Assembly (NCBI GenBank): GCA_964457775.1
Contig: CAYWEW010000004.1
Coordinates: 24,705-88,704 of the forward strand
Direction of reading: 5' to 3'
From: an uncultured Candidatus Saccharibacteria bacterium
Lineage (GTDB): Bacteria > Patescibacteriota > Minisyncoccia > Phycocordibacterales > UBA5272
DNA: 64,000 nucleotides
The position numbers and the translations under genes are program-made. The notes under the pieces were generated by a model. The model did not search any database and was not told the origin of the DNA. It saw only the letters and a program-made list of their open reading frames with translations. The first letter of the stretch is position 1. Each line of letters opens with the position of its first letter. This document shows, piece after piece, positions 23,519 through 54,174 of the stretch.

Positions 23519-24211
23519 CTAATGTCCCTCAACAATCACCACAAATTCCCCTCTTATATGGTCTTTATTCATTTCAAAATACTTTTTTATTTCTTCAACT
23601 CCACCTCTTATGACTTCCTCGTGCATTTTGGTTAGCTCTCGTGCAATAACAATTTGTCGTTTATCATCAAGATATTTTGCAAGTGACTCAAGTGTCTTTT
23701 CTATACGATGTACTGATTCATAGAAAACTGAAGTCATTTCACTTTCAGTAATTATTTTGAATAATGTCTCACGTCCTTTCTTGTGTGGCAAAAATCCATA
23801 AAATGTAAAATTGGCTGACGATATTCCTGAAGCTGACAATGCTGTAATAAGAGCGGATGCTCCGGGCAAGGCAATCACGTCCACATCTTTCAATTCATTT
23901 CGTACTTTATCAACAAGAAGAACTCCGGGATCAGAAATAGTTGGAGTCCCAGCATCAGACACAAGAGCAATTTGTTTACCCTCTTCTAACATCTCCATGA
24001 TTTTTTCAATATTCTTCACCCCTGTCTGCGCATAAAAAACAGATGTCTTTGTTGTAATATCATATTCCTTAAATAATCTCTGAGTAACTGATGTGTCTTC
24101 ACACAAAACTAAATCGACTTCTTTCAAAATACGAAGTGCTCGAAGTGTTATATCTTCTAGATTACCGATTGGTGTTGGCACAACATACAACTTTCCAAAA
24201 TTGTCATTCAT
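23519..24211 (-). CDS. rsmI: 16S rRNA (cytidine1402-2'-O)-methyltransferase
   Basis: LYVVPTPIGNLEDITLRAL..LVSDAGTPTISDPG. Confidence 0.85.
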   Translation of the reverse strand: MNDNFGKLYVVPTPIGNLEDITLRALRILKEVDLVLCEDTSVTQRLFKEYDITTKTSVFYAQTGVKNIEKIMEMLEEGKQIALVSDAGTPTISDPGVLLVDKVRNELKDVDVIALPGASALITALSASGISSANFTFYGFLPHKKGRETLFKIITESEMTSVFYESVHRIEKTLESLAKYLDDKRQIVIARELTKMHEEVIRGGVEEIKKYFEMNKDHIRGEFVVIVEGH

Positions 24212-24320
24212 AATCGTATCCTATCACACAAAAGAAAAAGTCCCGACATCGCGCCGAGACTTCTGAAATCATGCCCACATTACAAACAAATAATTTATAA
24301 TCACAAACCATGTCCAAAAA

Positions 24321-30373: not shown

Positions 30374-30405
30374 CAAAAATGCGCGACACTTGGTCGCGCT
30401 TTTTG
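30374..30405 (-). terminator. Rho-independent terminator (GCGCGAC...GTCGCGC family)
   Basis: GCGCGAC-acttg-GTCGCGC with T-runs on both sides. Confidence 0.55.
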
Positions 30406-32833: not shown

Positions 32834-32868
32834 CAAAAAACGCGACCTGAGTCGCGTTTAATTATTTT
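32834..32868 (+). terminator. Rho-independent terminator of rpmB
   Basis: AACGCGAC-ctga-GTCGCGTT followed by taattatttt. Confidence 0.55.
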
Positions 32869-33212
32869 AACCTTTTAACTGAAGGTACGGTCATATCATG
32901 AATCTTTAAACCAAGACCAGTAAGACCGACGAAAGCCATCATTTGCATCAGAGGGTGTCCTACCAAATTATGCATCGCCCAGACATGCCTCTGCCATTTA
33001 ATAGATGGCAAACCCTCTACTGCGCTCGGTTTAAACAAAAGAGTTATTTCTAGAGCATCTATTCCTTCTGCCAAATATACACCCCCTTCCTTTGTTGTAA
33101 TCTGTATCTCAAGAACATCTAAATCTTTATAATCTATACCCACAACAGAGTCTGTAGATATTACGACTGCGCCTGTTTTAATGAAACGAGGATAGATCTT
33201 AGGAAATAGCAT
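32862..33212 (-). CDS. hypothetical protein (117 aa)
   Basis: Start trimmed to MLFPKIY. 14-nt overlap with the upstream gene. Confidence 0.35.
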   Translation of the reverse strand: MLFPKIYPRFIKTGAVVISTDSVVGIDYKDLDVLEIQITTKEGGVYLAEGIDALEITLLFKPSAVEGLPSIKWQRHVWAMHNLVGHPLMQMMAFVGLTGLGLKIHDMTVPSVKRLK

Positions 33213-34443
33213 AGCCACCACTCTTCTCCATGAGATTAAAATTACGTTCAATAAAATCAATAACTCGAAATGATGGAACCCGTCTATTGTAAACAATATT
33301 CGGACCATGATTATCCAAATACACCGCAAAGATTCCTGGCTCTATTTCACGAATACCTCGAGACGTATTTGCTCCGCACTCATGACTCCCACATTCAAAC
33401 TCTCTTTGAGAAACAATAGGGACGAGAGAGTCTGTTTTTATTGTGCTATGAAAATGAACAATACAATCCAGATCAGCATGCTCGTTAAAAATAATTCGCT
33501 GTGACTGACCGCCCACCGATGGCTTCGCACCATGGGCAATCACTTGTCGATCATCAACAGAATCAATTTTAACTAGGCCAATATTAGCAAGGTCATTAAA
33601 GTTTCTTTTTCTTGGAGAGGTCAGGAATTCACCTTCTTTAACCTTAACAGCAAAGTGTCCGGCTGTTACTCCACGAAAAGTCTTATATGCTCCTTGATCT
33701 ATACAGTAATCAACAACCTCTCTAAGAGAATCCGGAACGTAAGGGGACCGCCATGGCGTCATCACATCATCAACAACAACACTTTTTGTAAAAGTGAGCT
33801 CTGACCGATGCAAGACCATATCAACCAAATTACGCAGAACGTGTTCTCTATCTTTACTTTCGTGATACACAGCTTCTTCTGGTGCGACAATCATATTCGT
33901 CCTTGTCACAACATCATTTGCCAAAACAAGGTTCACACTTGAGGCTTTCAACATATTAAGAGCCTGCTTATATGATTCCTCACTTGTAGCATTACATGTC
34001 GTCTTAAAACCAACAAGAAAAATATCTTTTCTAGCATTTGCGCCTGCACGAACACTGCTGATGATTTTTTGTGCCGGAAAAAGTAACATGCTATCTATTC
34101 CGTCTGAGGTCTTCAAACGTGGAGCATACTTGCCACCCTCGACCCCATCAACAGTCCCAACAAAATCAGTAAGCGCGATATTCATAAAGATAATCTTAGT
34201 TGCCTTATCGTTACAAATATCCCTCACCAACCCAGCAACGTCATCATTTGTAACCAAACTGCTTGAACTATCAGCCATCTTGGTTAAATGAAGACGCACT
34301 TCGTACTTGTCTTTGTCAAAGACTTCTTCACAAAGCTTTGCGATCTGCCTTGCAGTGTTACCGAATGCTGGTGCAGACAACGCAAGGTGACTACGAACAT
34401 GATTGAATGTTCCACCTCCCAAAACATGTATTATTGATTTCAT
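33199..34443 (-). CDS. fusion protein: CoaB-like (DFP-family ligase fold) N-terminal domain plus class II aldolase/adducin C-terminal domain
   Basis: N-terminal VLGGGTFNHVRSHLALSAPAFGNTARQIA, KIIFMNIALTDF and FLVGFKTT...LVLANDVV resemble CoaB. C-terminal KPSVGGQSQRIIFNEHADLDCIVHFHS is an aldolase_II signature. Confidence 0.5.
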   Translation of the reverse strand: MKSIIHVLGGGTFNHVRSHLALSAPAFGNTARQIAKLCEEVFDKDKYEVRLHLTKMADSSSSLVTNDDVAGLVRDICNDKATKIIFMNIALTDFVGTVDGVEGGKYAPRLKTSDGIDSMLLFPAQKIISSVRAGANARKDIFLVGFKTTCNATSEESYKQALNMLKASSVNLVLANDVVTRTNMIVAPEEAVYHESKDREHVLRNLVDMVLHRSELTFTKSVVVDDVMTPWRSPYVPDSLREVVDYCIDQGAYKTFRGVTAGHFAVKVKEGEFLTSPRKRNFNDLANIGLVKIDSVDDRQVIAHGAKPSVGGQSQRIIFNEHADLDCIVHFHSTIKTDSLVPIVSQREFECGSHECGANTSRGIREIEPGIFAVYLDNHGPNIVYNRRVPSFRVIDFIERNFNLMEKSGGYAIS

Positions 34444-34551
34444 GATAGATCCTTTGGTTAGGTTTGATAAAAAGAACTGCTGTTCCTTTTACAGAATACA
34501 GTGGGTTGTGTTTTAAGACAATGTGTGTTTATAATAATATATAAACATACT

Positions 34552-35322
34552 ATGACTCGCCTAGCAAAATTACTTCTTGATATAGGATTAACAGACACAG
34601 AGACTGCTGTCTTTGACCATCTCTATCACAATGGTAAAAATACTGCTTCTACAATTAGCCTCACTCTATCTAAAAATAGAGCAACAATATACCATGCACT
34701 ACACTCATTGAAAACAAAAGGTCTTCTATGTGTAGAAAATGAAAATGGCACTAATCATTTCAGTGTTCCAAATAAAGAAATTTTTTCATCATACTTTGAG
34801 CACAAGGAAGAGATGATACATAAGCACAAAAAAGAAGTTGAGGAATACATGTCCAAAAAAAAGCCTCTGATTAAAAAATCCGAGGAAACCACAGAATTCT
34901 ACACTGGGGACGAAGGTATTCGCATGGCATTAGAAAAAGCCTTTCGCTGTAAAACAAAAAGGTGGGATATCATTGCTCCCAGAAACAATTTTTTTACTAG
35001 TGCAAACGAAGAATTTGCTGATTACTATATGCACAGTAGAAAAAAATACAAAATACTTTCACGTAGTTTATGGGAAAAGACAAAAAACGAACCACTTCTA
35101 GTAACAAAAATATTACAAGAAGAAAGAAACCCTAGATATTTGGACGAAAAGGCAAGTAATACTTTTAGTTCAATCCTTATACTTTATGATGACTCTGCTT
35201 TATGCATTTCTTCACACAAAGAGCGTACCGCAATAATAATCCAGTCTGAAAGTATGCACAGCATTCTGAAAATGCAATTTAATTTACTCTACGATAGTGC
35301 AATCAGGCCAGAAATAAAATGA
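34552..35322 (+). CDS. TrmB-family transcriptional regulator
   Basis: LGLTDTETAVFDHLYHNGKNTASTISL..IYHALHSLKTKGLL wHTH. Confidence 0.65.
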   Translation: MTRLAKLLLDIGLTDTETAVFDHLYHNGKNTASTISLTLSKNRATIYHALHSLKTKGLLCVENENGTNHFSVPNKEIFSSYFEHKEEMIHKHKKEVEEYMSKKKPLIKKSEETTEFYTGDEGIRMALEKAFRCKTKRWDIIAPRNNFFTSANEEFADYYMHSRKKYKILSRSLWEKTKNEPLLVTKILQEERNPRYLDEKASNTFSSILILYDDSALCISSHKERTAIIIQSESMHSILKMQFNLLYDSAIRPEIK

Positions 35323-35418
35323 ATGGTCCTCGTGTAAAGATTTGTATTTGATGTAATAAACATATCAAATTAAGTACATAAAATAAGAAATTTAATGAAA
35401 TAGTATATACTTTATTAT

Positions 35419-36564
35419 ATGCAAACATTTAATTTTAGTGAACTTATTCTTCTTATTGGGGTTTATTTGTTAATAATGACAGTGTTGTACGCTTATAAAT
35501 TTATAAATAGTAAAGATGTTATTAGAGCTTGGTACAAAAAAAGATTAATTATAAATTGTGTTTCCATTTTTGTTTTACTTTTACTTTGGGCTTTTACCGC
35601 TATGCAACGTACTGTTATGTATGGCATAGGTCAAGGTGGGTCAGTACCAATTCCAGGTATGGCTTCATCAATGAATTCTAGAATGATAAATATTCCAAAT
35701 TATTATAATAACAATAACGGAGACATAACTGACACAAGAGAGTTCATAAAAAAGACTTTTTCAGCAAATCTAAAAACGAGGGAGGTAGAAGATGTCGCGA
35801 AGAAAGTTGAACTACTTATTAAAGGACTTGGGGGGCGTATAGATAACTCAAATATTACGAACACATATGCTACTTTTAGTTTTGTAATTCCAAAATCAAA
35901 CTTAGATGACTTTGAATCTCAAATAAGATCTTATGTTCATAAAAAATTCTATTCCCAGACAATTACCTCCCAAAACCTTCTAGGGGAGAAGCAAGACCTT
36001 GAGCGTAATCAGGATTCCACAAAAGATTCAATTGATTCTCTTACAACACAAAGACAACAAGTACAGAATGATTACACAAAAAATGCAAATACTATAAAAT
36101 CAAAAATAGAAACTAAAAGTTCTCAATTAAAAACCGTACGTGATAATATCCTAAAAAAAGAAAACGAACTTAGTGTAGCCACAAATACAAATATAATAAC
36201 TGAAAAAAATCAGGAATTGAGGACTCTACGAAATTCTGAAAGTAATCTAAACCAAGGAATCACAACTTTAGTTTCAGAATTTAATAATTTGTCTAATCTT
36301 TTCAAGTCTCAAATGTCTAATCTTGGGGCGTCATTAGAAGACCAAAATAATGTGCTTATTAGTTTGGACAAACAGACCGATTCCTTCTTGAACAAAGTAG
36401 AAACTGTTCAAGGGACTATATATATTAGTTTCGTTTCAGTTTGGGCAATTATCGATATCTTCTCTCCTATAAACCCAATAATAATATTATTTGTTGTATT
36501 TATAATTATTAGATTGATATTTTTAAACAAACAAGAGAAGAAGTTACTTGAATTACAGAAGTAG
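35419..36564 (+). CDS. membrane protein with central coiled coil (DUF4349-like architecture)
   Basis: TM at both ends. Q/N/S-rich coiled-coil middle. Confidence 0.4.
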   Translation: MQTFNFSELILLIGVYLLIMTVLYAYKFINSKDVIRAWYKKRLIINCVSIFVLLLLWAFTAMQRTVMYGIGQGGSVPIPGMASSMNSRMINIPNYYNNNNGDITDTREFIKKTFSANLKTREVEDVAKKVELLIKGLGGRIDNSNITNTYATFSFVIPKSNLDDFESQIRSYVHKKFYSQTITSQNLLGEKQDLERNQDSTKDSIDSLTTQRQQVQNDYTKNANTIKSKIETKSSQLKTVRDNILKKENELSVATNTNIITEKNQELRTLRNSESNLNQGITTLVSEFNNLSNLFKSQMSNLGASLEDQNNVLISLDKQTDSFLNKVETVQGTIYISFVSVWAIIDIFSPINPIIILFVVFIIIRLIFLNKQEKKLLELQK

Positions 36565-36610
36565 TAAGTGCGTAAATAGCTGCTGAACTAAACACTAATT
36601 AAACAGCAAG

Positions 36611-36642
36611 AAAAGCGCGCTTAAAATCGCGCTTTTGCTTTT
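36611..36642 (+). terminator. Rho-independent terminator (GCGCG-stem family)
   Basis: AAAAGCGCG-cttaaaat-CGCGCTTTTGCTTTT. Confidence 0.55.
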
Positions 36643-36694
36643 ACACATATCTTATTGTAGGATTACGACATCTCAATCACTAAAGGAAGAGATC

Positions 36695-37099
36695 ATGTCG
36701 TTCTTTATTAATGGAATTTTTTGGCAGGAAGGAATGTTCCCATACATTGGTCATGCTCCAATAATTGGTGAAGTGGTAATGATTGGTGAAGCACAAGTCG
36801 AAGCTGTCTTCTCAGGAATGATTGGTGAAAGAATTATCAACAAAATATCTGATGGCTTCTTGGTTGATGTGTACGGGCAATCCGAGCTCACCGATTTTGA
36901 AGTTCGAGAAAAAAACATGCAATTCACGAAACGCTACTTTCATCGAGACGATGAAATTCTCTACGACTTCAAAAAGTCCGAAGGTGGAGTCTGGGTCGGC
37001 AGGTGGCATGGCAAACGAGTTGGTGAAGGTGGAACGAAATGCATTCTCACCGAAATTCCTGAAACATTTTTCACGCAACAATTTCCAAACAAAAAATAA
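36695..37099 (+). CDS. cassette 1: hypothetical protein (134 aa)
   Basis: AAGGAAG RBS and ATG at 36695. Preceded by the conserved TAGGAT-containing upstream element. Confidence 0.4.
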   Translation: MSFFINGIFWQEGMFPYIGHAPIIGEVVMIGEAQVEAVFSGMIGERIINKISDGFLVDVYGQSELTDFEVREKNMQFTKRYFHRDDEILYDFKKSEGGVWVGRWHGKRVGEGGTKCILTEIPETFFTQQFPNKK

Positions 37100-37120
37100 T
37101 TTATATGTACAATTATTGTG

Positions 37121-37152
37121 AAGCGCGACCTACAGTCGCGCTTTTCTTTTTT
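37121..37152 (+). terminator. Rho-independent terminator (AGCGCGACC...GGTCGCGCTTTTC family)
   Basis: AGCGCGACC-taca-GTCGCGCTTTTCTTTT. Confidence 0.6.
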
Positions 37153-37199
37153 ATTTCACATGTTAGGATATGATTATAGTTCATTCACAGGAGAAAATA

Positions 37200-37355
37200 A
37201 TGAAAAAAAGCAGGGGTAGAAAAGGAAGGGTAGTTAAACCTGTGTCGCGTATCCCTGAAACATACAGGGATCCTTTGACAGGTGTATATGCTTTCCCAGC
37301 AAGTTTCGGAGAAAGTTTTGCCGAGAGAATCAGGATACGTTTCGCAAAAAAGTAA
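37200..37355 (+). CDS. cassette 2: small basic protein (51 aa)
   Basis: AGGAG RBS and ATG at 37200. Same upstream element and terminator as its neighbours. Confidence 0.35.
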   Translation: MKKSRGRKGRVVKPVSRIPETYRDPLTGVYAFPASFGESFAERIRIRFAKK

Positions 37356-37358
37356 CTT

Positions 37359-37388
37359 AGCGCGACCTTTGGTCGCGCTTTTCTTTTT
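37359..37388 (+). terminator. Rho-independent terminator (same family)
   Basis: AGCGCGACC-tttg-GTCGCGCTTTTCTTTTT. Confidence 0.6.
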
Positions 37389-37440
37389 ACCCTAAAATGC
37401 TAGGATACGATTATTGCTCATTACATGAAAGGGTATATAA

Positions 37441-37692
37441 ATGAAAAATGTCCTAAGAGGAGGAGCTCCTTTTACTCTTCCGCAAATTCGAAAACAGCTA
37501 GGCATGAGTCAGGATGGCCTTGCTACTTTGCTTGAGGTGTCAACTGATACTATTCAAGCATGGGAGAATGGTAGAAAAAAACCAAGTAGCACATCAAGGT
37601 TACTCCTTGAGATGCTTGCGGCAGATCAAAAAAACACAATCCGTTTGATAAAAAAATCTGCTGGATTTTTCTTCCAACCAAACCCAAAATAA
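37441..37692 (+). CDS. cassette 3: HTH XRE-family protein (HigA/MqsA-like antitoxin-type C-terminus)
   Basis: LPQIRKQLGMSQDGLATLLEVSTDTIQAWENGRKKPS helix-turn-helix. Confidence 0.65.
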   Translation: MKNVLRGGAPFTLPQIRKQLGMSQDGLATLLEVSTDTIQAWENGRKKPSSTSRLLLEMLAADQKNTIRLIKKSAGFFFQPNPK

Positions 37693-37711
37693 ATAGGTAA
37701 AATTTTTGAAT

Positions 37712-37742
37712 AAGCGCGACCGAAGGTCGCGCTTTTCTTTTG
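37712..37742 (+). terminator. Rho-independent terminator (same family)
   Basis: AGCGCGACC-gaag-GTCGCGCTTTTCTTTT. Confidence 0.6.
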
Positions 37743-37770
37743 CAATTCATTCGCACTTATCTTTACATAT

Positions 37771-38697
37771 CTATTTGTCTGTCTTAACCTCCATCATCCT
37801 ACCGTCAGTCACAAAAGAAATACTTCCTCTGTCTATTGTGCTTATAATTTCTTTTGTGTATTTTTGTAATCTGTCAATCGTCTCTACATTCGGATGTCCG
37901 TACTTATTATTTTTTCCTGCACTCACGACTGTGTACTCGGGTTTGATGTAACTTAGCAACTGCTCTCCACTTGATGTCTTACTTCCATGATGCCCTACTT
38001 TGTACACTGTCACATTTTTTGGAAGCGCACCACTATCGAATAATTTATTTTCTTTTGCTGTTGGTAAGTCTCCAGTTAACAAAAAACTTTGTTCTCCGTA
38101 TGTGATGACCATACTCACTGATGCATCATTCGTATCATTTTTCTTTTCTTGATAATTTTTTTGTGGGTACAAAATTTGTGCAGTTACTCCATCATGAAAA
38201 TCAATCACATCTCCTGTACGTGCGACATACATATCTGCATGTTCGACATCGATATGTTTATCTAACTCACCAAAAACTTTTGTGTCACTATGTACTGGTG
38301 ATTCTATAATTGTATGTGCTTTATATTTTTCTAAAACTGGAATTAATCCAGTCACATGATCTGCATCCGGATGAGTTGCGACTATCACATCTATCTCACG
38401 ATCAAAGTATGACATTTCAGAATCTAGTCTAGATAAAATTATATTCGTCGGACCACCATCTATAAGCATTTGTTTTCCACTTGGAGTTTGTACAAAAATT
38501 GCATCACCTTGTCCAACATCGAGAAAAGAAACTTTGAGTTTTTGTGGTGTGATTAATTTGTATATCACAATTGCTGATATCAAAATAATAAATAATGAAA
38601 TGAAAACAAAAGTAACTTTTCCATAATTATGAATAAAATCTTTTGTGCTTTTTCTCACATTTTCTCTCCACTCATTCATATGATAATAGTAACACAA
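37771..38697 (-). CDS. ComEC C-terminal metallo-beta-lactamase domain protein (split comEC, part 2)
   Basis: FLDVGQGDAIFVQTPSGKQMLIDGG..., HPDADHVTGL. Confidence 0.6.
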   Translation of the reverse strand: MCYYYHMNEWRENVRKSTKDFIHNYGKVTFVFISLFIILISAIVIYKLITPQKLKVSFLDVGQGDAIFVQTPSGKQMLIDGGPTNIILSRLDSEMSYFDREIDVIVATHPDADHVTGLIPVLEKYKAHTIIESPVHSDTKVFGELDKHIDVEHADMYVARTGDVIDFHDGVTAQILYPQKNYQEKKNDTNDASVSMVITYGEQSFLLTGDLPTAKENKLFDSGALPKNVTVYKVGHHGSKTSSGEQLLSYIKPEYTVVSAGKNNKYGHPNVETIDRLQKYTKEIISTIDRGSISFVTDGRMMEVKTDK

Positions 38698-38785
38698 GCG
38701 GAACCTTTGGTTCTGTTTACCCTATTTGTATTTGCTAAAATCTACCAACTAAGAGCTAACAGTTGTTTGTTGTATACTATACCCC

Positions 38786-39358
38786 ATGATCGACTTACAC
38801 ATAATAATTTCCTCCTGGTCATACCTAGCCATCTTTATATTAATGTTCACCAACGGTGTCGGGAATTTTCCTTCTTCGCAATTCCTTTATCTTATTTGTG
38901 GTTACTTCATTAGTACAGGTAACTTACTTTTTGTCCCAACTATTCTTGTAGGAACGATAGGCAACGCCTTGGGAAATATCACAACTTTTTTTCTCATAAA
39001 AAAATACGGCGAATCCTTTGCTCGAAAGTTGTTTATGCTTGATGAGGAAAAATTTAGAAAAATTTACTCGGCTCTTCACAGCACTTTTCAAGATAAAGGT
39101 TTGTGGTGGTTATTCTTAGGAAAATTAACTCCTTCGATAAAAGCCTTCGTTCCTATGGTCGCTGGTTTAGCAAATACTGAGAGTAAAATTACCTCTTTGA
39201 TATTTTTTGTAGGATCTCTCCTTTGGGCAATTATGGTTACTTCGATTGGTTATTTCTTCGGTGAACACATCTCACTCACCTCTCTCACGGCCGTTTCACT
39301 GACTGTAGGTTCTATCATTATCTTTATTGTTTATAAGAAAGTTTACAAAAACCTATAA
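38786..39358 (+). CDS. DedA/TVP38 family membrane protein
   Basis: Multi-TM protein. DedA-type re-entrant loop region (FPSSQFLYLICGYF). Confidence 0.55.
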   Translation: MIDLHIIISSWSYLAIFILMFTNGVGNFPSSQFLYLICGYFISTGNLLFVPTILVGTIGNALGNITTFFLIKKYGESFARKLFMLDEEKFRKIYSALHSTFQDKGLWWLFLGKLTPSIKAFVPMVAGLANTESKITSLIFFVGSLLWAIMVTSIGYFFGEHISLTSLTAVSLTVGSIIIFIVYKKVYKNL

Positions 39359-39368
39359 CAAAATTCTT

Positions 39369-40925
39369 TCAGTAGGAAATTATGTCGGTGAGATTTCCAT
39401 TCTCTCTTGTTGCACGCGTTTCATTATTATATTTTCTTAAAATTAATATCATTAGAATAGAAACGAAAAGATAAATAAAACACATCGTTTTAAATGAAAC
39501 GTTAAGCATAACTGTCGAGTAAGGAAATAATTCTATTGTTCTTGCTACCCATATCATGACCCCAATTAGTACTGAATCTATGTATCCAATAAGTAGTGAT
39601 AATGTGTGTGAAATGTATGAAAAAAATACAACCAAGAATGAGAACAACATCGCAATTGGTACAAATGGAACGACAAGCACATTCGCTATGAGGGCGTACA
39701 CTGACACTGTCCCGAAGGTGTACATAACATAAGGCAATGTCGCGAAGTAGGCAGACAAGGTAGTAATGAAGAGTTCTCTTAAAGAGAGTGGCGACACGTA
39801 AGAGAAATATTTTTGAAATAACAATGTAAGTGGTTCACTCATATACACCAATCCAACCGTTGCGAGAAACGAGAGATGAAGTGATACATCGTGCATGAGC
39901 GCATATGGTTCATACATCACAATTATAAATAACGAAATTATCAAAGCTTGCTTCGCTACATATTGACGACCGACCAACATTGCGAGTAACGCGATGAACG
40001 CCATCAGAGTTGCACGTATAACACTCGGACTACCCCCTACCATAATTACAAAAAGTACTACTGAAATTGAAGCGAACACAATACGCAAAGTAAGTGGAAG
40101 AAACGCGAGTGCAAACAAAATAGAAGCAATTACAATTACTATATTGAAACCAGAAAGAACCACAATGTGAGATAGTCCTGCAGAACGAAATGTCTGAGTT
40201 AATTCTTTGGACATTGATGATGCTCCGAACAACATCCCGCTTGCAAGTGATGACGCGGGTGATGAAACATAAGTATCAATTCTTGTAGTTAAATTTTCTT
40301 TCAGACGACCCAACACATCTCTTATAGCATGAGCCTCACTATCAATCCCCTCCACACGGGGGTACATCATTTCACTTCCAATATTTTTGGTCAGTAAGTA
40401 TGAAGCGTAATCAAATCCTTTTTCTTTGATCTCGTTATGAGAATAAATAATTTTTGGAACAGTAACTTTTCCAGAAAGTTTGAGCGTCTCGCCTATTTCA
40501 TATTTTGGATAAAGCGGTGTGCGAACTTCTACCGCAAGTGCTTCAACATCTTTGACAATCGGCTCTACTGAAAAAATTTGATACTCATTTTTTGTCTCTG
40601 GTGATGTAACAATTACAGCATTGAATGTACAACTACTCTCACATACAAAATTATTTTTCTCCTCAACTAATTGTACACGGATGATTCCGATAAATAGTCC
40701 GAGACAAAAAAGTGAAGTGACGAGCGGAAAAGGAAAATGATGAAGGATGTCGAAGATGTCCTTCATCATTTTTCTTTTCCGCTCCCAACCATACAACCCC
40801 AACTGTATCACCCCGAGCACCACTGCTAGCACCCCCACCTCACTTCCATACACAGACATCTCTCCAATCACAATTCCTAACAATGCTCCGACTACGAATA
40901 TAACTGTCTTTGCATGTGTTGTCAT
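39369..40925 (-). CDS. ComEC/Rec2 N-terminal membrane 'Competence' domain protein (split comEC, part 1)
   Basis: SVIRATLMAFIALLAMLVGR...LHLSFLATVGL competence-domain signature. Confidence 0.6.
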   Translation of the reverse strand: MTTHAKTVIFVVGALLGIVIGEMSVYGSEVGVLAVVLGVIQLGLYGWERKRKMMKDIFDILHHFPFPLVTSLFCLGLFIGIIRVQLVEEKNNFVCESSCTFNAVIVTSPETKNEYQIFSVEPIVKDVEALAVEVRTPLYPKYEIGETLKLSGKVTVPKIIYSHNEIKEKGFDYASYLLTKNIGSEMMYPRVEGIDSEAHAIRDVLGRLKENLTTRIDTYVSSPASSLASGMLFGASSMSKELTQTFRSAGLSHIVVLSGFNIVIVIASILFALAFLPLTLRIVFASISVVLFVIMVGGSPSVIRATLMAFIALLAMLVGRQYVAKQALIISLFIIVMYEPYALMHDVSLHLSFLATVGLVYMSEPLTLLFQKYFSYVSPLSLRELFITTLSAYFATLPYVMYTFGTVSVYALIANVLVVPFVPIAMLFSFLVVFFSYISHTLSLLIGYIDSVLIGVMIWVARTIELFPYSTVMLNVSFKTMCFIYLFVSILMILILRKYNNETRATRENGNLTDIISY

Positions 40926-54076: not shown

Positions 54077-54174
54077 GATACCCTCCCTTTATTGTTTCTA
54101 TTAATATACTATCAGAATTTTATACTAATCAAAACTAGAAAAGTCTAATCAAATATGATAGGATATATTTCACA

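Follow-up and report, generated by a model that had tools for sequence, protein, structure and literature searches.

The locus comprises three small open reading frames on the plus strand, at 36695-37099, 37200-37355 and 37441-37692 (134, 51 and 83 aa), within a 64-kb window, the term used here for the whole stretch of DNA that was analysed. These coordinates agree with the initial annotation, and all three of the upstream strings that it quoted were found verbatim. From consensus and folding, each gene is predicted to form a promoter–gene–terminator module, as had been supposed. The wider flanks carry rpmB, rpsL, a Peptidase_M50 gene and comEC, and the Pfam families found within about 10 kb are DFP/Aldolase_II, TrmB, DUF4349, Lactamase_B, VTT_dom, Competence, RNase_H, Peptidase_S41, IMS and SLFN-g3 helicase. 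Rfam gave no match in the region and only tRNAs elsewhere in the window. Genetic code 25 (TGA as Gly) was considered on account of one homologue that bears the name Ca. Gracilibacteria, and was rejected, as long open reading frames run without in-frame TGA and TGA is the stop codon of 11 of 75 genes; the organism is a member of Candidatus Gracilibacteria that uses code 11. The features are listed below, where L numbers denote relatives.

36611-36642, both strands (bidirectional): putative terminator T0, hairpin AAAAGCGCG-CTTAAAAT-CGCGCTTTT followed by GCTTTT, folding at -14.1 kcal/mol (plus strand) and -15.3 kcal/mol (minus strand).
36635-36676, plus strand: P1, putative promoter of gene 1, with TTGCTT (36635-36640), a 17-nt spacer and TAGGAT (36658-36663).
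36654-36676, plus strand: invariant block of P1, ATTGTAGGATTACGACATCTCAA, identical in L016, L003 and L009 and with one mismatch in L006.
36695-37099, plus strand: gene 1, 134 aa, with Shine-Dalgarno AAGGAAG at 36683-36689.
37120-37152, plus strand: putative terminator T1, GAAGCGCGAC-CTACA-GTCGCGCTTT followed by TCTTTTTT, folding at -16.3 kcal/mol (z = -5.3).
37161-37199, plus strand: putative promoter P2 and leader, with extended -10 TGtTAGGAT (37161-37169), leader ATGATTATAGTTCATTCAC and Shine-Dalgarno AGGAGA (37189-37194).
37200-37355, plus strand: gene 2, a basic 51-aa protein with the conserved core YRDPLTGVYAFPASF, common to the orthologue translations.
37359-37388, plus strand: putative terminator T2, AGCGCGACC-TTT-GGTCGCGCT followed by TTTCTTTTT, folding at -16.2 kcal/mol (z = -4.5).
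37398-37440, plus strand: putative promoter P3 and leader, with extended -10 TGcTAGGAT (37398-37406), leader ACGATTATTGCTCATTAC and Shine-Dalgarno GAAAGGG (37427-37433).
37441-37692, plus strand: gene 3, an 83-aa solo XRE-family HTH protein (HTH_3, 4.6e-9).
37712-37756, plus strand: putative terminator T3, AAGCGCGACC-GAA-GGTCGCGCTT (hairpin 37712-37741) followed by TTCTTTT and the conserved right flank GCAATTCATTCGCAC, folding at -18.7 kcal/mol.
Directly 5' of the ATG of an rsmI-like gene at 24223, minus strand: an extra TGATAGGATACGATT.

The protein of gene 1 is predicted by structural modelling to be a cytoplasmic eight-stranded β-barrel of a large uncharacterised family, which counts 469 cluster representatives and has no match in Pfam. 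An earlier AF2 model from 4 sequences was unusable (pLDDT 42), and the model adopted here has a pLDDT of 93.5. Its fold was matched by generic barrels only, with TM-scores of at most 0.46 among the better PDB matches, and a profile of the barrel family found nothing significant among PDB sequences. Metagenome scans with the barrel-protein alignment, and with the P1 DNA block, found nothing. Orthologues are 76-86% identical with dN/dS of about 0.1, and the order rpmB–barrel–metallo-β-lactamase (MBL) is present in L016, L003, L006, L009 and L031; down to 35% identity, gene 1 is found between rpmB and the ComEC-MBL gene with a TAGGAT promoter. P1, which is assigned as a putative promoter by consensus, is kept at 37-38 of 44 nt overall among relatives although dS of gene 1 ranges from 0.9 to more than 2. 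The synteny, the dN/dS and the invariant promoter block together argue that gene 1 is vertically inherited.

Gene 2 was found in three lineages only, with known orthologues in L016/L002 (50 aa) and L009 (49 aa, 62% identity). Searches of Pfam, NCBIfam, PADLOC and PHROGs gave no match to its protein, and a word-index search with it returned almost nothing. In L009, a gap of 22 nt separates genes 1 and 2, which share a single terminator, AGCGCGGCC-ACC-GGCCGCGCTTTTCTTTT, an arrangement that reads as an operon. The array of mobile cassettes that had been envisaged does not fit these data, given a plain operon in L009, the persistent synteny of gene 1 and the apparent vertical inheritance of both genes.

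Gene 3 was found in the window's genome only and is absent from L016 and L015, L009, L003, L006 and L031, and a word-index search with its protein matched itself only. The initial annotation had called it an HTH-XRE protein of the HigA/MqsA antitoxin type; the XRE-type HTH fold was borne out by HTH_3, whereas the MqsA and NadS models score below threshold only (MqsA_antitoxin 0.005, 17.3 bits, under the 30-bit cutoff). It matches phrog_2104 (1.1e-13) and weakly resembles phage or bacterial 'Xre family antitoxin' genes at 35-38% identity. A pairing in which the basic 51-aa protein is the toxin and the HTH protein its antitoxin draws on this resemblance, on the sub-threshold likeness of gene 3 to the C-terminal domain of MqsA/NadS, as in type II toxin–antitoxin systems, and on the small size of the upstream gene. 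The locus differs from such systems, however, in having neither an operon, since T2 with its -16 kcal/mol hairpin and U-tract and the separate putative promoter P3 lie between the two genes, nor a recognisable toxin, the 51-aa protein belonging to no known toxin family in the four databases named above. Furthermore, 49-50-aa orthologues occur in L009 and L016/L015 without an HTH gene, and in L009 the orthologue is probably co-transcribed with the barrel gene. The toxin–antitoxin pair was rejected because the presumed partner exists without the HTH gene, and we regard it as very improbable.

Downstream of each of the three genes the same pattern recurs, a AGCGCGACC/GGTCGCGC hairpin with a TTTTCTTTT tail. 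The nearly identical terminator described initially is present as a GCGCGAC…GTCGCGC hairpin followed by TTTTCTTTT 3' of each gene, but its exact 'nnnn' spacing matches nothing: the loops are of 3 nt in T2 and T3 (TTT and GAA) and CTACA in T1, whose hairpin is imperfect. With folding energies of -16.2 to -18.7 kcal/mol, z of -3.6 to -5.3 and a U-tract after each hairpin, T1 to T3 are predicted from folding and consensus to be strong Rho-independent terminators, which they resemble in the G+C-rich hairpin, the U-tract directly following it and the position at the 3' end of a gene. The orthologous copy of T1 in the relative reads AGCGCGACC-TCC-GGTCGCGC; the left flank of T2, GTAACTT, is that of the relative's single terminator; and the flank of T3, TTTTGCAAnTAATTyGCA, is kept in L009, L003, L006 and L015, which marks the T3 site as the apparent ancestral terminator position facing the convergent ComEC-MBL gene. 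A fourth, related hairpin, T0, lies 5' of gene 1 and is predicted to end the upstream DUF4349 gene, its T-tract overlapping the -35 element of P1.

Palindromic elements repeated at gene boundaries speak for an integron, i.e., an array of small-gene cassettes captured by site-specific recombination at the hairpins. Integron cassettes are promoterless and expressed from a common Pc promoter, next to an intI tyrosine recombinase with attI, and their attC sites are imperfect palindromes of 57-141 bp with extrahelical bases and a GTTRRRY core. Small genes with palindromic elements between them are indeed what the locus presents, but each gene appears to have its own promoter, with a TAGGAT -10, a Shine-Dalgarno sequence and a preceding terminator, and no tyrosine recombinase or other recombinase domain, and hence no integrase, was found within about 10 kb on each side. 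The hairpins have perfect stems of 9-10 bp, loops of 3-5 nt and U-tracts, as canonical intrinsic terminators do, and are without R''-L''/L'-R', extrahelical bases or a GTTRRRY core, which TGTTAGGAT does not match. With genes 1 and 2 apparently inherited vertically, an integron is extremely improbable, and this part of the initial annotation was abandoned.

How specific these elements are to the locus was judged from 64 kb of the window's genome and one complete relative, and additional copies may exist elsewhere. The pattern GCGCGAC-N3-8-GTCGCGC has four occurrences in the window, three of them inside 620 bp, whereas shuffled sequences give an expectation of 0.00, and looser relatives of the hairpin lie at 30381-30399 and 32838-32859; the stems of the window's intrinsic terminators, about 18 in all, are otherwise diverse. 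In a representative Gracilibacteria genome the strict terminator pattern was found three times only, all at the orthologous locus. The tail TTTTCTTTT is also found at unrelated terminators (22831, 24236 and 53502), and the exact hairpin-plus-tail appears sporadically in unrelated phyla (16 of 19 stretches were outside Gracilibacteria), so part of the similarity could be convergent. The terminator pattern is absent from viral contigs, and 79 viral matches to TGNTAGGATAYGATTAT were dismissed as chance core matches without extension. As the loops of all three copies differ, the copies are either not recent or have stems kept alike by selection or gene conversion. The module site adjoins the comEC competence genes, and the organism is thought to depend on DNA uptake. 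A reading of GCGCGACC as a DNA-uptake sequence was set aside by reasoning, the motif being present in only four hairpins in 64 kb.

The upstream elements share TAGGAT, which is best read as a -10 hexamer; two of the three units carry it in the extended form TGnTAGGAT. The view that the upstream element is in part a promoter motif used elsewhere in the lineage was upheld: each of the window's four TGnTAGGAT sites lies between genes in the right orientation, and two of the four precede the unrelated rsmI and tRNA-Gly genes. The motif reported for tRNA-Gly(TCC) does include an upstream TAGGAT; its position was corrected to 54159-54164, where it occurs as TGATAGGAT, 12 nt 5' of the tRNA. Other TGn-extended hexamers of the window are likewise intergenic (TGnTAGTAT in 6 of 6 cases, TGnTATACT in 4 of 4). 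P2 and P3 thus resemble extended -10 promoters of the sigma-70 type, with the key T-12, A-11 and T-7 kept, and differ from them in that TAGGAT is a minority -10 variant in the window's genome; in P1, moreover, the TG lies one position too near the hexamer for a canonical extended -10.

The likeness between units extends beyond the promoter, as terminator and promoter make up one 64-nt repeat family, in which copies 1 (T1/P2) and 2 (T2/P3) are 80% identical. The P2 module has an orthologue at L016 5104-5150, and the rsmI site is a module partly similar to the locus copies in the 64-kb window. Apart from TAGGAT and the leader motif TCAnT(n)AC, P1 has little in common with P2 and P3, and its membership of the module family appears weak. 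An nhmmer model of P2/P3 detected no additional copy in the window; across 127.5 kb, its top match outside the training set fell in L031, at the promoter of the orthologue of the barrel gene (E = 0.0088), a modest match of 14 bits. The initial annotation had named a generic promoter/terminator consensus as the finding that would make the array unremarkable. In fact, the TAGGAT hexamer and the TTTTCTTTT tail do recur elsewhere, but the shared stem and shared leader are specific to the locus within the 64-kb window and one complete relative, and their appearance is that of paralogous copies rather than of a consensus shared across the genome.

Shared regulation instead of shared ancestry could also produce such likeness, if the -10 and leader (TAGGATAYGATTAT…TCATTnAC) served a single regulator, as its binding site or as a leader element, in the joint control of rsmI and the three genes, and were kept alike by selection. 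In lineages that have diverged to dS of about 1 or more, P1 stays unchanged from -4 to +13, which exceeds the needs of a -10 hexamer; TAGGATACGATTAT is identical at 14 of 14 positions before rsmI and before the HTH gene; and a similar leader lies 5' of the barrel gene in the distant L031. Yet no operator-like palindrome or repeat was seen by eye in the module sequences, and the likeness runs on through terminator stems and tails, beyond what a promoter-bound regulator would constrain. The HTH protein cannot be the regulator in the relatives, since these are without its gene. A common regulator is therefore considered unlikely.

Gene 3 is flanked by two copies of a terminator of which the closest relative has just one. 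In that relative the site reads GTAACTT-hairpin-TTTTCTTTT-GCAAATAATT, and in the window GTAACTT-hairpin-TTTTCTTTT-[P3-HTH]-hairpin-TTTTCTTTT-GCAATTCATT. The relative (L015/L016) has another insert, of 159 nt, at the same terminator, and even L003 and L009, with 96.5% identity between their barrel genes, differ from each other in the slot 3' of that gene. Of the insertion hotspot that had been suggested, variability of the slot between the β-barrel gene and the ComEC-MBL gene among relatives was retained, and an integron or mobile array was not. The slot is flanked on its 3' side by the ComEC-MBL gene, which is convergent.

The closest parallel is found in T4-like phages, where promoter-early stem-loops (PeSLs) are composite terminator/promoter cassettes (Arbiol et al. 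2010, PMC2839356; Comeau et al. 2014, PMC4122927), which were proposed to excise as circles and re-insert at any module. In both cases a short repeat joins a stem-loop terminator to a sigma-70-type promoter with a Shine-Dalgarno sequence between small, mostly unknown genes, and the composite motif of up to about 100 bp in phages compares with the 64-nt family here. The HTH gene, flanked by two modules where L015/L016 have one, repeats the pattern of ORFan192 in RB49/phi1 (PMC2839356). If the modules were more than remnants of duplication and acted likewise, serving as portable homology through which small genes are gained, lost and shuffled by way of excised circles and re-insertion at any module, the different 159-nt insert and the slot that varies between L003 and L009 would also fit. 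However, the locus belongs to the chromosome of a bacterium of the candidate phyla radiation and not to a phage. It has 3-4 copies at one place in 64 kb, and the strict pattern brought out no others in the relative's genome, against about 50 over hyperplastic regions in phages. Two of its three flanked genes are conserved and apparently vertically inherited, the L003/L009 indel is without flanking modules, and the differing loops make no recent exchange evident. Furthermore, the stem-loop lies 5' of the promoter with its T-tract over the -35 region, and mini-circles are a feature of the phage elements. Recombination of the PeSL kind as the general explanation is accordingly thought rather improbable.

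Phage morons, independent promoter–gene–terminator units (reviewed in PMC3594210), offer a second parallel for gene 3, as P3, the gene and T3 make up a predicted self-contained unit between features that are adjacent in the relative. Unlike a moron, the unit has no prophage context, its flanks being rpmB and comEC; the G+C of the insert (40%) matches that of its immediate neighbours (41-42%), and its regulatory signals duplicate local ones and are not of foreign origin.

The explanation that we prefer, and hold to be probable, is that the locus comprises three independent monocistronic units that arose by local paralogy of a copied terminator-promoter-leader module, with the HTH gene as an insertion of the moron or PeSL type. 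Each unit would consist of a sigma-70-type promoter with a TAGGAT -10 (TTGCTT-17-TAGGAT in front of gene 1, and the extended -10 form TGnTAGGAT in front of the other two), a leader of some 22-28 nt that includes a Shine-Dalgarno sequence, and a strong Rho-independent terminator; the three genes would be independently transcribed because a terminator-plus-promoter module of about 60 bases was copied between them. The ancestor may have read rpmB, TAGGAT promoter, β-barrel gene (with or without the ~50-aa gene in an operon), one terminator and, last, the ComEC-MBL gene in convergent orientation. In the lineage to which the window and its closest relative belong, the module would then have come to separate the barrel gene from the 51-aa gene, and in the window's genome alone a further module and the XRE-HTH gene would have been placed between two copies of the relative's single terminator. 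The HTH gene would bring or reuse its own promoter and terminator at a harmless spot between convergent genes. A compact module of about 60-85 nt would in this manner have been copied inside one locus, most likely through recombination, either homologous or mediated by microhomology, where the hairpin and T-tract are repeated.

A bolder proposal, which we consider improbable, is that the modules are a chromosomal counterpart of PeSLs in a bacterium of the candidate phyla radiation, by which small genes could be captured, expressed at once and lost without a dedicated recombinase. If the modules were to recur genome-wide beside strain-variable genes, the phage mechanism would be extended to bacterial chromosomes. 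The locus otherwise appears as tidy, largely ordinary local regulatory evolution, neither an integron nor a toxin–antitoxin system. The locus also draws attention to a large β-barrel family, as yet unnamed, whose structure is predicted with confidence. In sum, the locus offers a clear small case study of how an operon may be split into separately controlled genes by copying of a terminator/promoter module of about 60 nt and how a new gene can arrive expression-ready through the same copying, and it may aid promoter and terminator annotation in Gracilibacteria.

The initial annotation described three small genes that share an upstream element and a terminator. The layout is as follows, gene 1 encoding a β-barrel protein, gene 2 a basic protein and gene 3 an XRE-type HTH protein.

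Features of the three-gene locus
36611-36642, related bidirectional hairpin upstream of gene 1
36695-37099, + strand, gene 1, ORF of 134 aa
37120-37152, hairpin after gene 1 (T1), GAAGCGCGAC-CTACA-GTCGCGCTTT, T-rich tail
37200-37355, + strand, gene 2, ORF of 51 aa
37359-37388, hairpin after gene 2 (T2), AGCGCGACC-TTT-GGTCGCGCT, T-rich tail
37441-37692, + strand, gene 3, ORF of 83 aa
37712-37741, hairpin after gene 3 (T3), AAGCGCGACC-GAA-GGTCGCGCTT, T-rich tail

The quoted upstream strings were found 5' of all three genes, and a hairpin with a T-rich tail follows each of them, closed in every case by TTTTCTTTT; only the proposed 4-nt loop spacing was inexact. With a flexible loop, the hairpin pattern occurred four times in 64 kb and never in shuffles. 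A repeat finder merged terminator and promoter into a 64-nt family, with 80% identity between copies 1 and 2, and together with the related hairpin before gene 1 these results establish that the repeated element-gene-terminator arrangement is real, far above chance and clear in its anatomy. The window has a G+C content of 35.5% and uses genetic code 11 despite a homologue of gene 1 named Candidatus Gracilibacteria: its long ORFs lack in-frame TGA, and TGA is the stop codon of 11 of 75 genes.

For the three hairpins, predicted folding energies range from -16.2 to -18.7 kcal/mol (z-scores from -3.6 to -5.3), and a U-tract lies 3' of each. About 18 intrinsic terminators were found in the window, with otherwise diverse stems; the TTTTCTTTT tail is frequent among them (e.g., 22831, 24236 and 53502), and the GCGCGAC stem is limited to this neighbourhood, at 30381 and in T1-T3. 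When one genome per species (596 Gb) was scanned for stem plus tail, 19 stretches were found, 16 of them spread over various phyla (Saccharibacteria, Paceibacterota, Butyricicoccus and others), so convergence can produce the sequence. In the representative Gracilibacteria genome JAIPIK01 the only three matches all lie at the barrel-gene locus, which rules out a genome-wide consensus terminator and makes paralogy the best reading of the local copies. The unrelated Firmicutes MAG CAUEJN01 (Butyricicoccus) carries the GCGCGAC hairpin with the TTTTCTTTT tail on three contigs (L017, L021 and L027), which may be another local terminator family.

The upstream hexamer TAGGAT occurs at 18 sites in the window, 7 of which are intergenic though intergenic DNA makes up only 12% of it. 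Five of these seven lie 12-40 nt 5' of a same-strand gene, namely genes 1-3, an rsmI-like gene (24223, - strand) and tRNA-Gly(TCC) (54159). TGn-extended hexamers were exclusively intergenic (TGnTAGGAT 4/4, TGnTAGTAT 6/6, TGnTATACT 4/4), and this bias marks TAGGAT as a putative minority variant of the lineage's extended -10 promoter. The essential -10 positions T-12, A-11 and T-7 are all kept in it. The predicted promoter of gene 1 reads TTGCTT-17-TAGGAT, without the canonical TGn, and its block ATTGTAGGATTACGACATCTCAA is unchanged across lineages with near-saturated synonymous sites. The alternative raised by the initial annotation, a generic promoter and terminator consensus, applies in part to the -10 hexamer and to the U-tract tail; for stem and leader it is wrong. 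Leaderless mRNAs appear common in this genome, judging from promoter positions: 24/75 CDS have a -10-like hexamer whose 3' end lies 4-10 nt upstream of the start codon, versus 8% at random positions, and a Shine-Dalgarno sequence precedes only 16/75. Genes 1-3 belong to the leader-bearing minority. Upstream of the rsmI-like gene (24211-24262, - strand), a hairpin is followed by TTTTTCTTTT, TGATAGGATACGATT and ATG, the same layout as in the locus modules and identical with P3, the predicted promoter and leader of gene 3, over 14/14 nt; a leaderless transcript seems to start from this predicted promoter.

Barrel-gene loci of relatives were retrieved via exact-protein look-ups.

Relatives' loci, with barrel-protein identity and gene order
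L016+L015 (same as L002), 86%: rpmB, terminator, P1 (gene 1 promoter), barrel gene, terminator, P2 (gene 2 promoter and leader), 50-aa gene, 159-nt structured insert, terminator, metallo-β-lactamase gene
L003 and L006, 81% and 76%: order of L031 plus an upstream insertion, a gene for a 105-aa membrane protein
L009, 79%: barrel gene and, after 22 nt, 49-aa gene, then AGCGCGGCC-ACC-GGCCGCGCTTTTCTTTT
L031, 35%: rpmB, terminator, TGTTAGGATTCCAATATTCGCTCACTTAC… barrel gene, terminator, convergent ComEC-type metallo-β-lactamase gene

L003 and L006 lack the 50-aa gene and have unrelated terminator stems, and the L009 pair is a predicted co-transcribed operon. Although their barrel genes are 96.5% identical, L003 (6471-6590) and L009 (3810-4071) have wholly swapped segments 3' of them, one with the 49-aa gene and a GCGCGGCC terminator, the other with only an unrelated terminator; the last codons of the barrel genes differ too. 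The ComEC split at 37771-40925 places a metallo-β-lactamase gene (-), a VTT/DedA-domain gene (+) and a DUF4131+Competence gene (-) in a row, an arrangement kept in L009 and L031.

The closest relative, L016+L015 (contigs overlapping by 107 nt), lacks the HTH gene; the window differs from it by two window-side extras, a block of ~3.7 kb between rpmB and the barrel gene and the HTH unit (P3, gene 3 and terminator). The block (32860-36640) has a terminator-like hairpin at either edge (32838 and 36611). Its genes code for a DFP/class II aldolase fusion of 414 aa, which matches phrog_35624 strongly (5.9e-45), for a TrmB-like regulator and for a coiled-coil membrane protein with DUF4349; a small - strand ORF may be present as well. 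In JAIPIK01, the G+C-rich 159-nt insert (L016 5301-5431 plus L015 1798-1640, - strand), between the 50-aa gene's stop codon and the terminator, folds into successive perfect hairpins (a 171-nt stretch gives -72 kcal/mol) and has AGTAA at both flanks. The assembly breaks within it and Rfam gave no match; a miniature mobile element and a structured RNA are both possible identities.

The flank TTTTGCAAnTAATTyGCA, right of the last terminator, is kept in all relatives. The closest relative has a single GTAACTT-hairpin-TTTTCTTTT-GCAAATAATT, whereas the window has GTAACTT-hairpin-TTTTCTTTT, P3, the HTH gene, a second hairpin-TTTTCTTTT and then GCAATTCATT; from this comparison the HTH unit is evidently an insertion between two copies of a duplicated 29-nt terminator. 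The T1/P2 module is orthologous in both and absent from L009. Trained solely on P3 and on the P2 sequences of window and relative, a model detected no further copy within the window. Outside its training set, the best match in 127.5 kb was the L031 barrel-gene promoter (E = 0.0088, a modest 14 bits), suggesting that the ancestral promoter and leader of the barrel gene gave rise to P2 and P3. Since the hairpin loops differ in every copy, either module copying was not recent or the stems were kept alike.

The integron-like layout first proposed was abandoned, as no recombinase lies nearby, attC architecture is missing and every gene has its own predicted promoter. A toxin–antitoxin pair was also rejected, because a predicted terminator and promoter separate genes 2 and 3, and the 51-aa gene is kept without the HTH gene in relatives, its L009 copy in the putative barrel-gene operon. 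Gene 2 orthologues occur only in L016 and L009, sharing the core YR(D/N)PLTGxYAFPASF. Gene 3, annotated as a HigA/MqsA-type antitoxin, is indeed an XRE-type HTH protein (HTH_3 4.6e-9, phrog_2104 1e-13), with sub-threshold matches to the MqsA and NadS models; profile and word-index searches found no close homologue.

The modules resemble in layout the PeSL terminator/promoter cassettes of T4-like phages, which flank small genes and mediate indels (PMC2839356; PMC4122927); where one phage has two PeSLs with a gene between them, its relative has a single PeSL (PMC2839356). In layout they also resemble phage morons (PMC3594210). Unlike these, they are chromosomal, lie at one locus within the DNA searched and surround two vertically inherited genes. 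At heart the mechanism would be an ordinary one, combining promoters and terminators with local duplication, and the site between the convergent genes a permissive one. The chance that the locus is a case of PeSL-like cassette dynamics on a chromosome of the candidate phyla radiation is modest.

Gene 1 is under purifying selection (dN/dS ~0.1), and its protein has no sequence match in Pfam or PDB. The confident AlphaFold model (78-sequence alignment, pLDDT 93.5) shows eight strands forming an antiparallel β-barrel, with a short helix at the C-terminus; its best structural matches (NHBA-C, nitrobindin, GrlR, NanoLuc/FABP) reach TM-scores of at most 0.46, indicating only a generic calycin-like barrel; a ligand-binding role may be inferred from the model. 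With 469 cluster representatives at 50% identity, this large, unnamed family without a Pfam model could merit a new Pfam entry.
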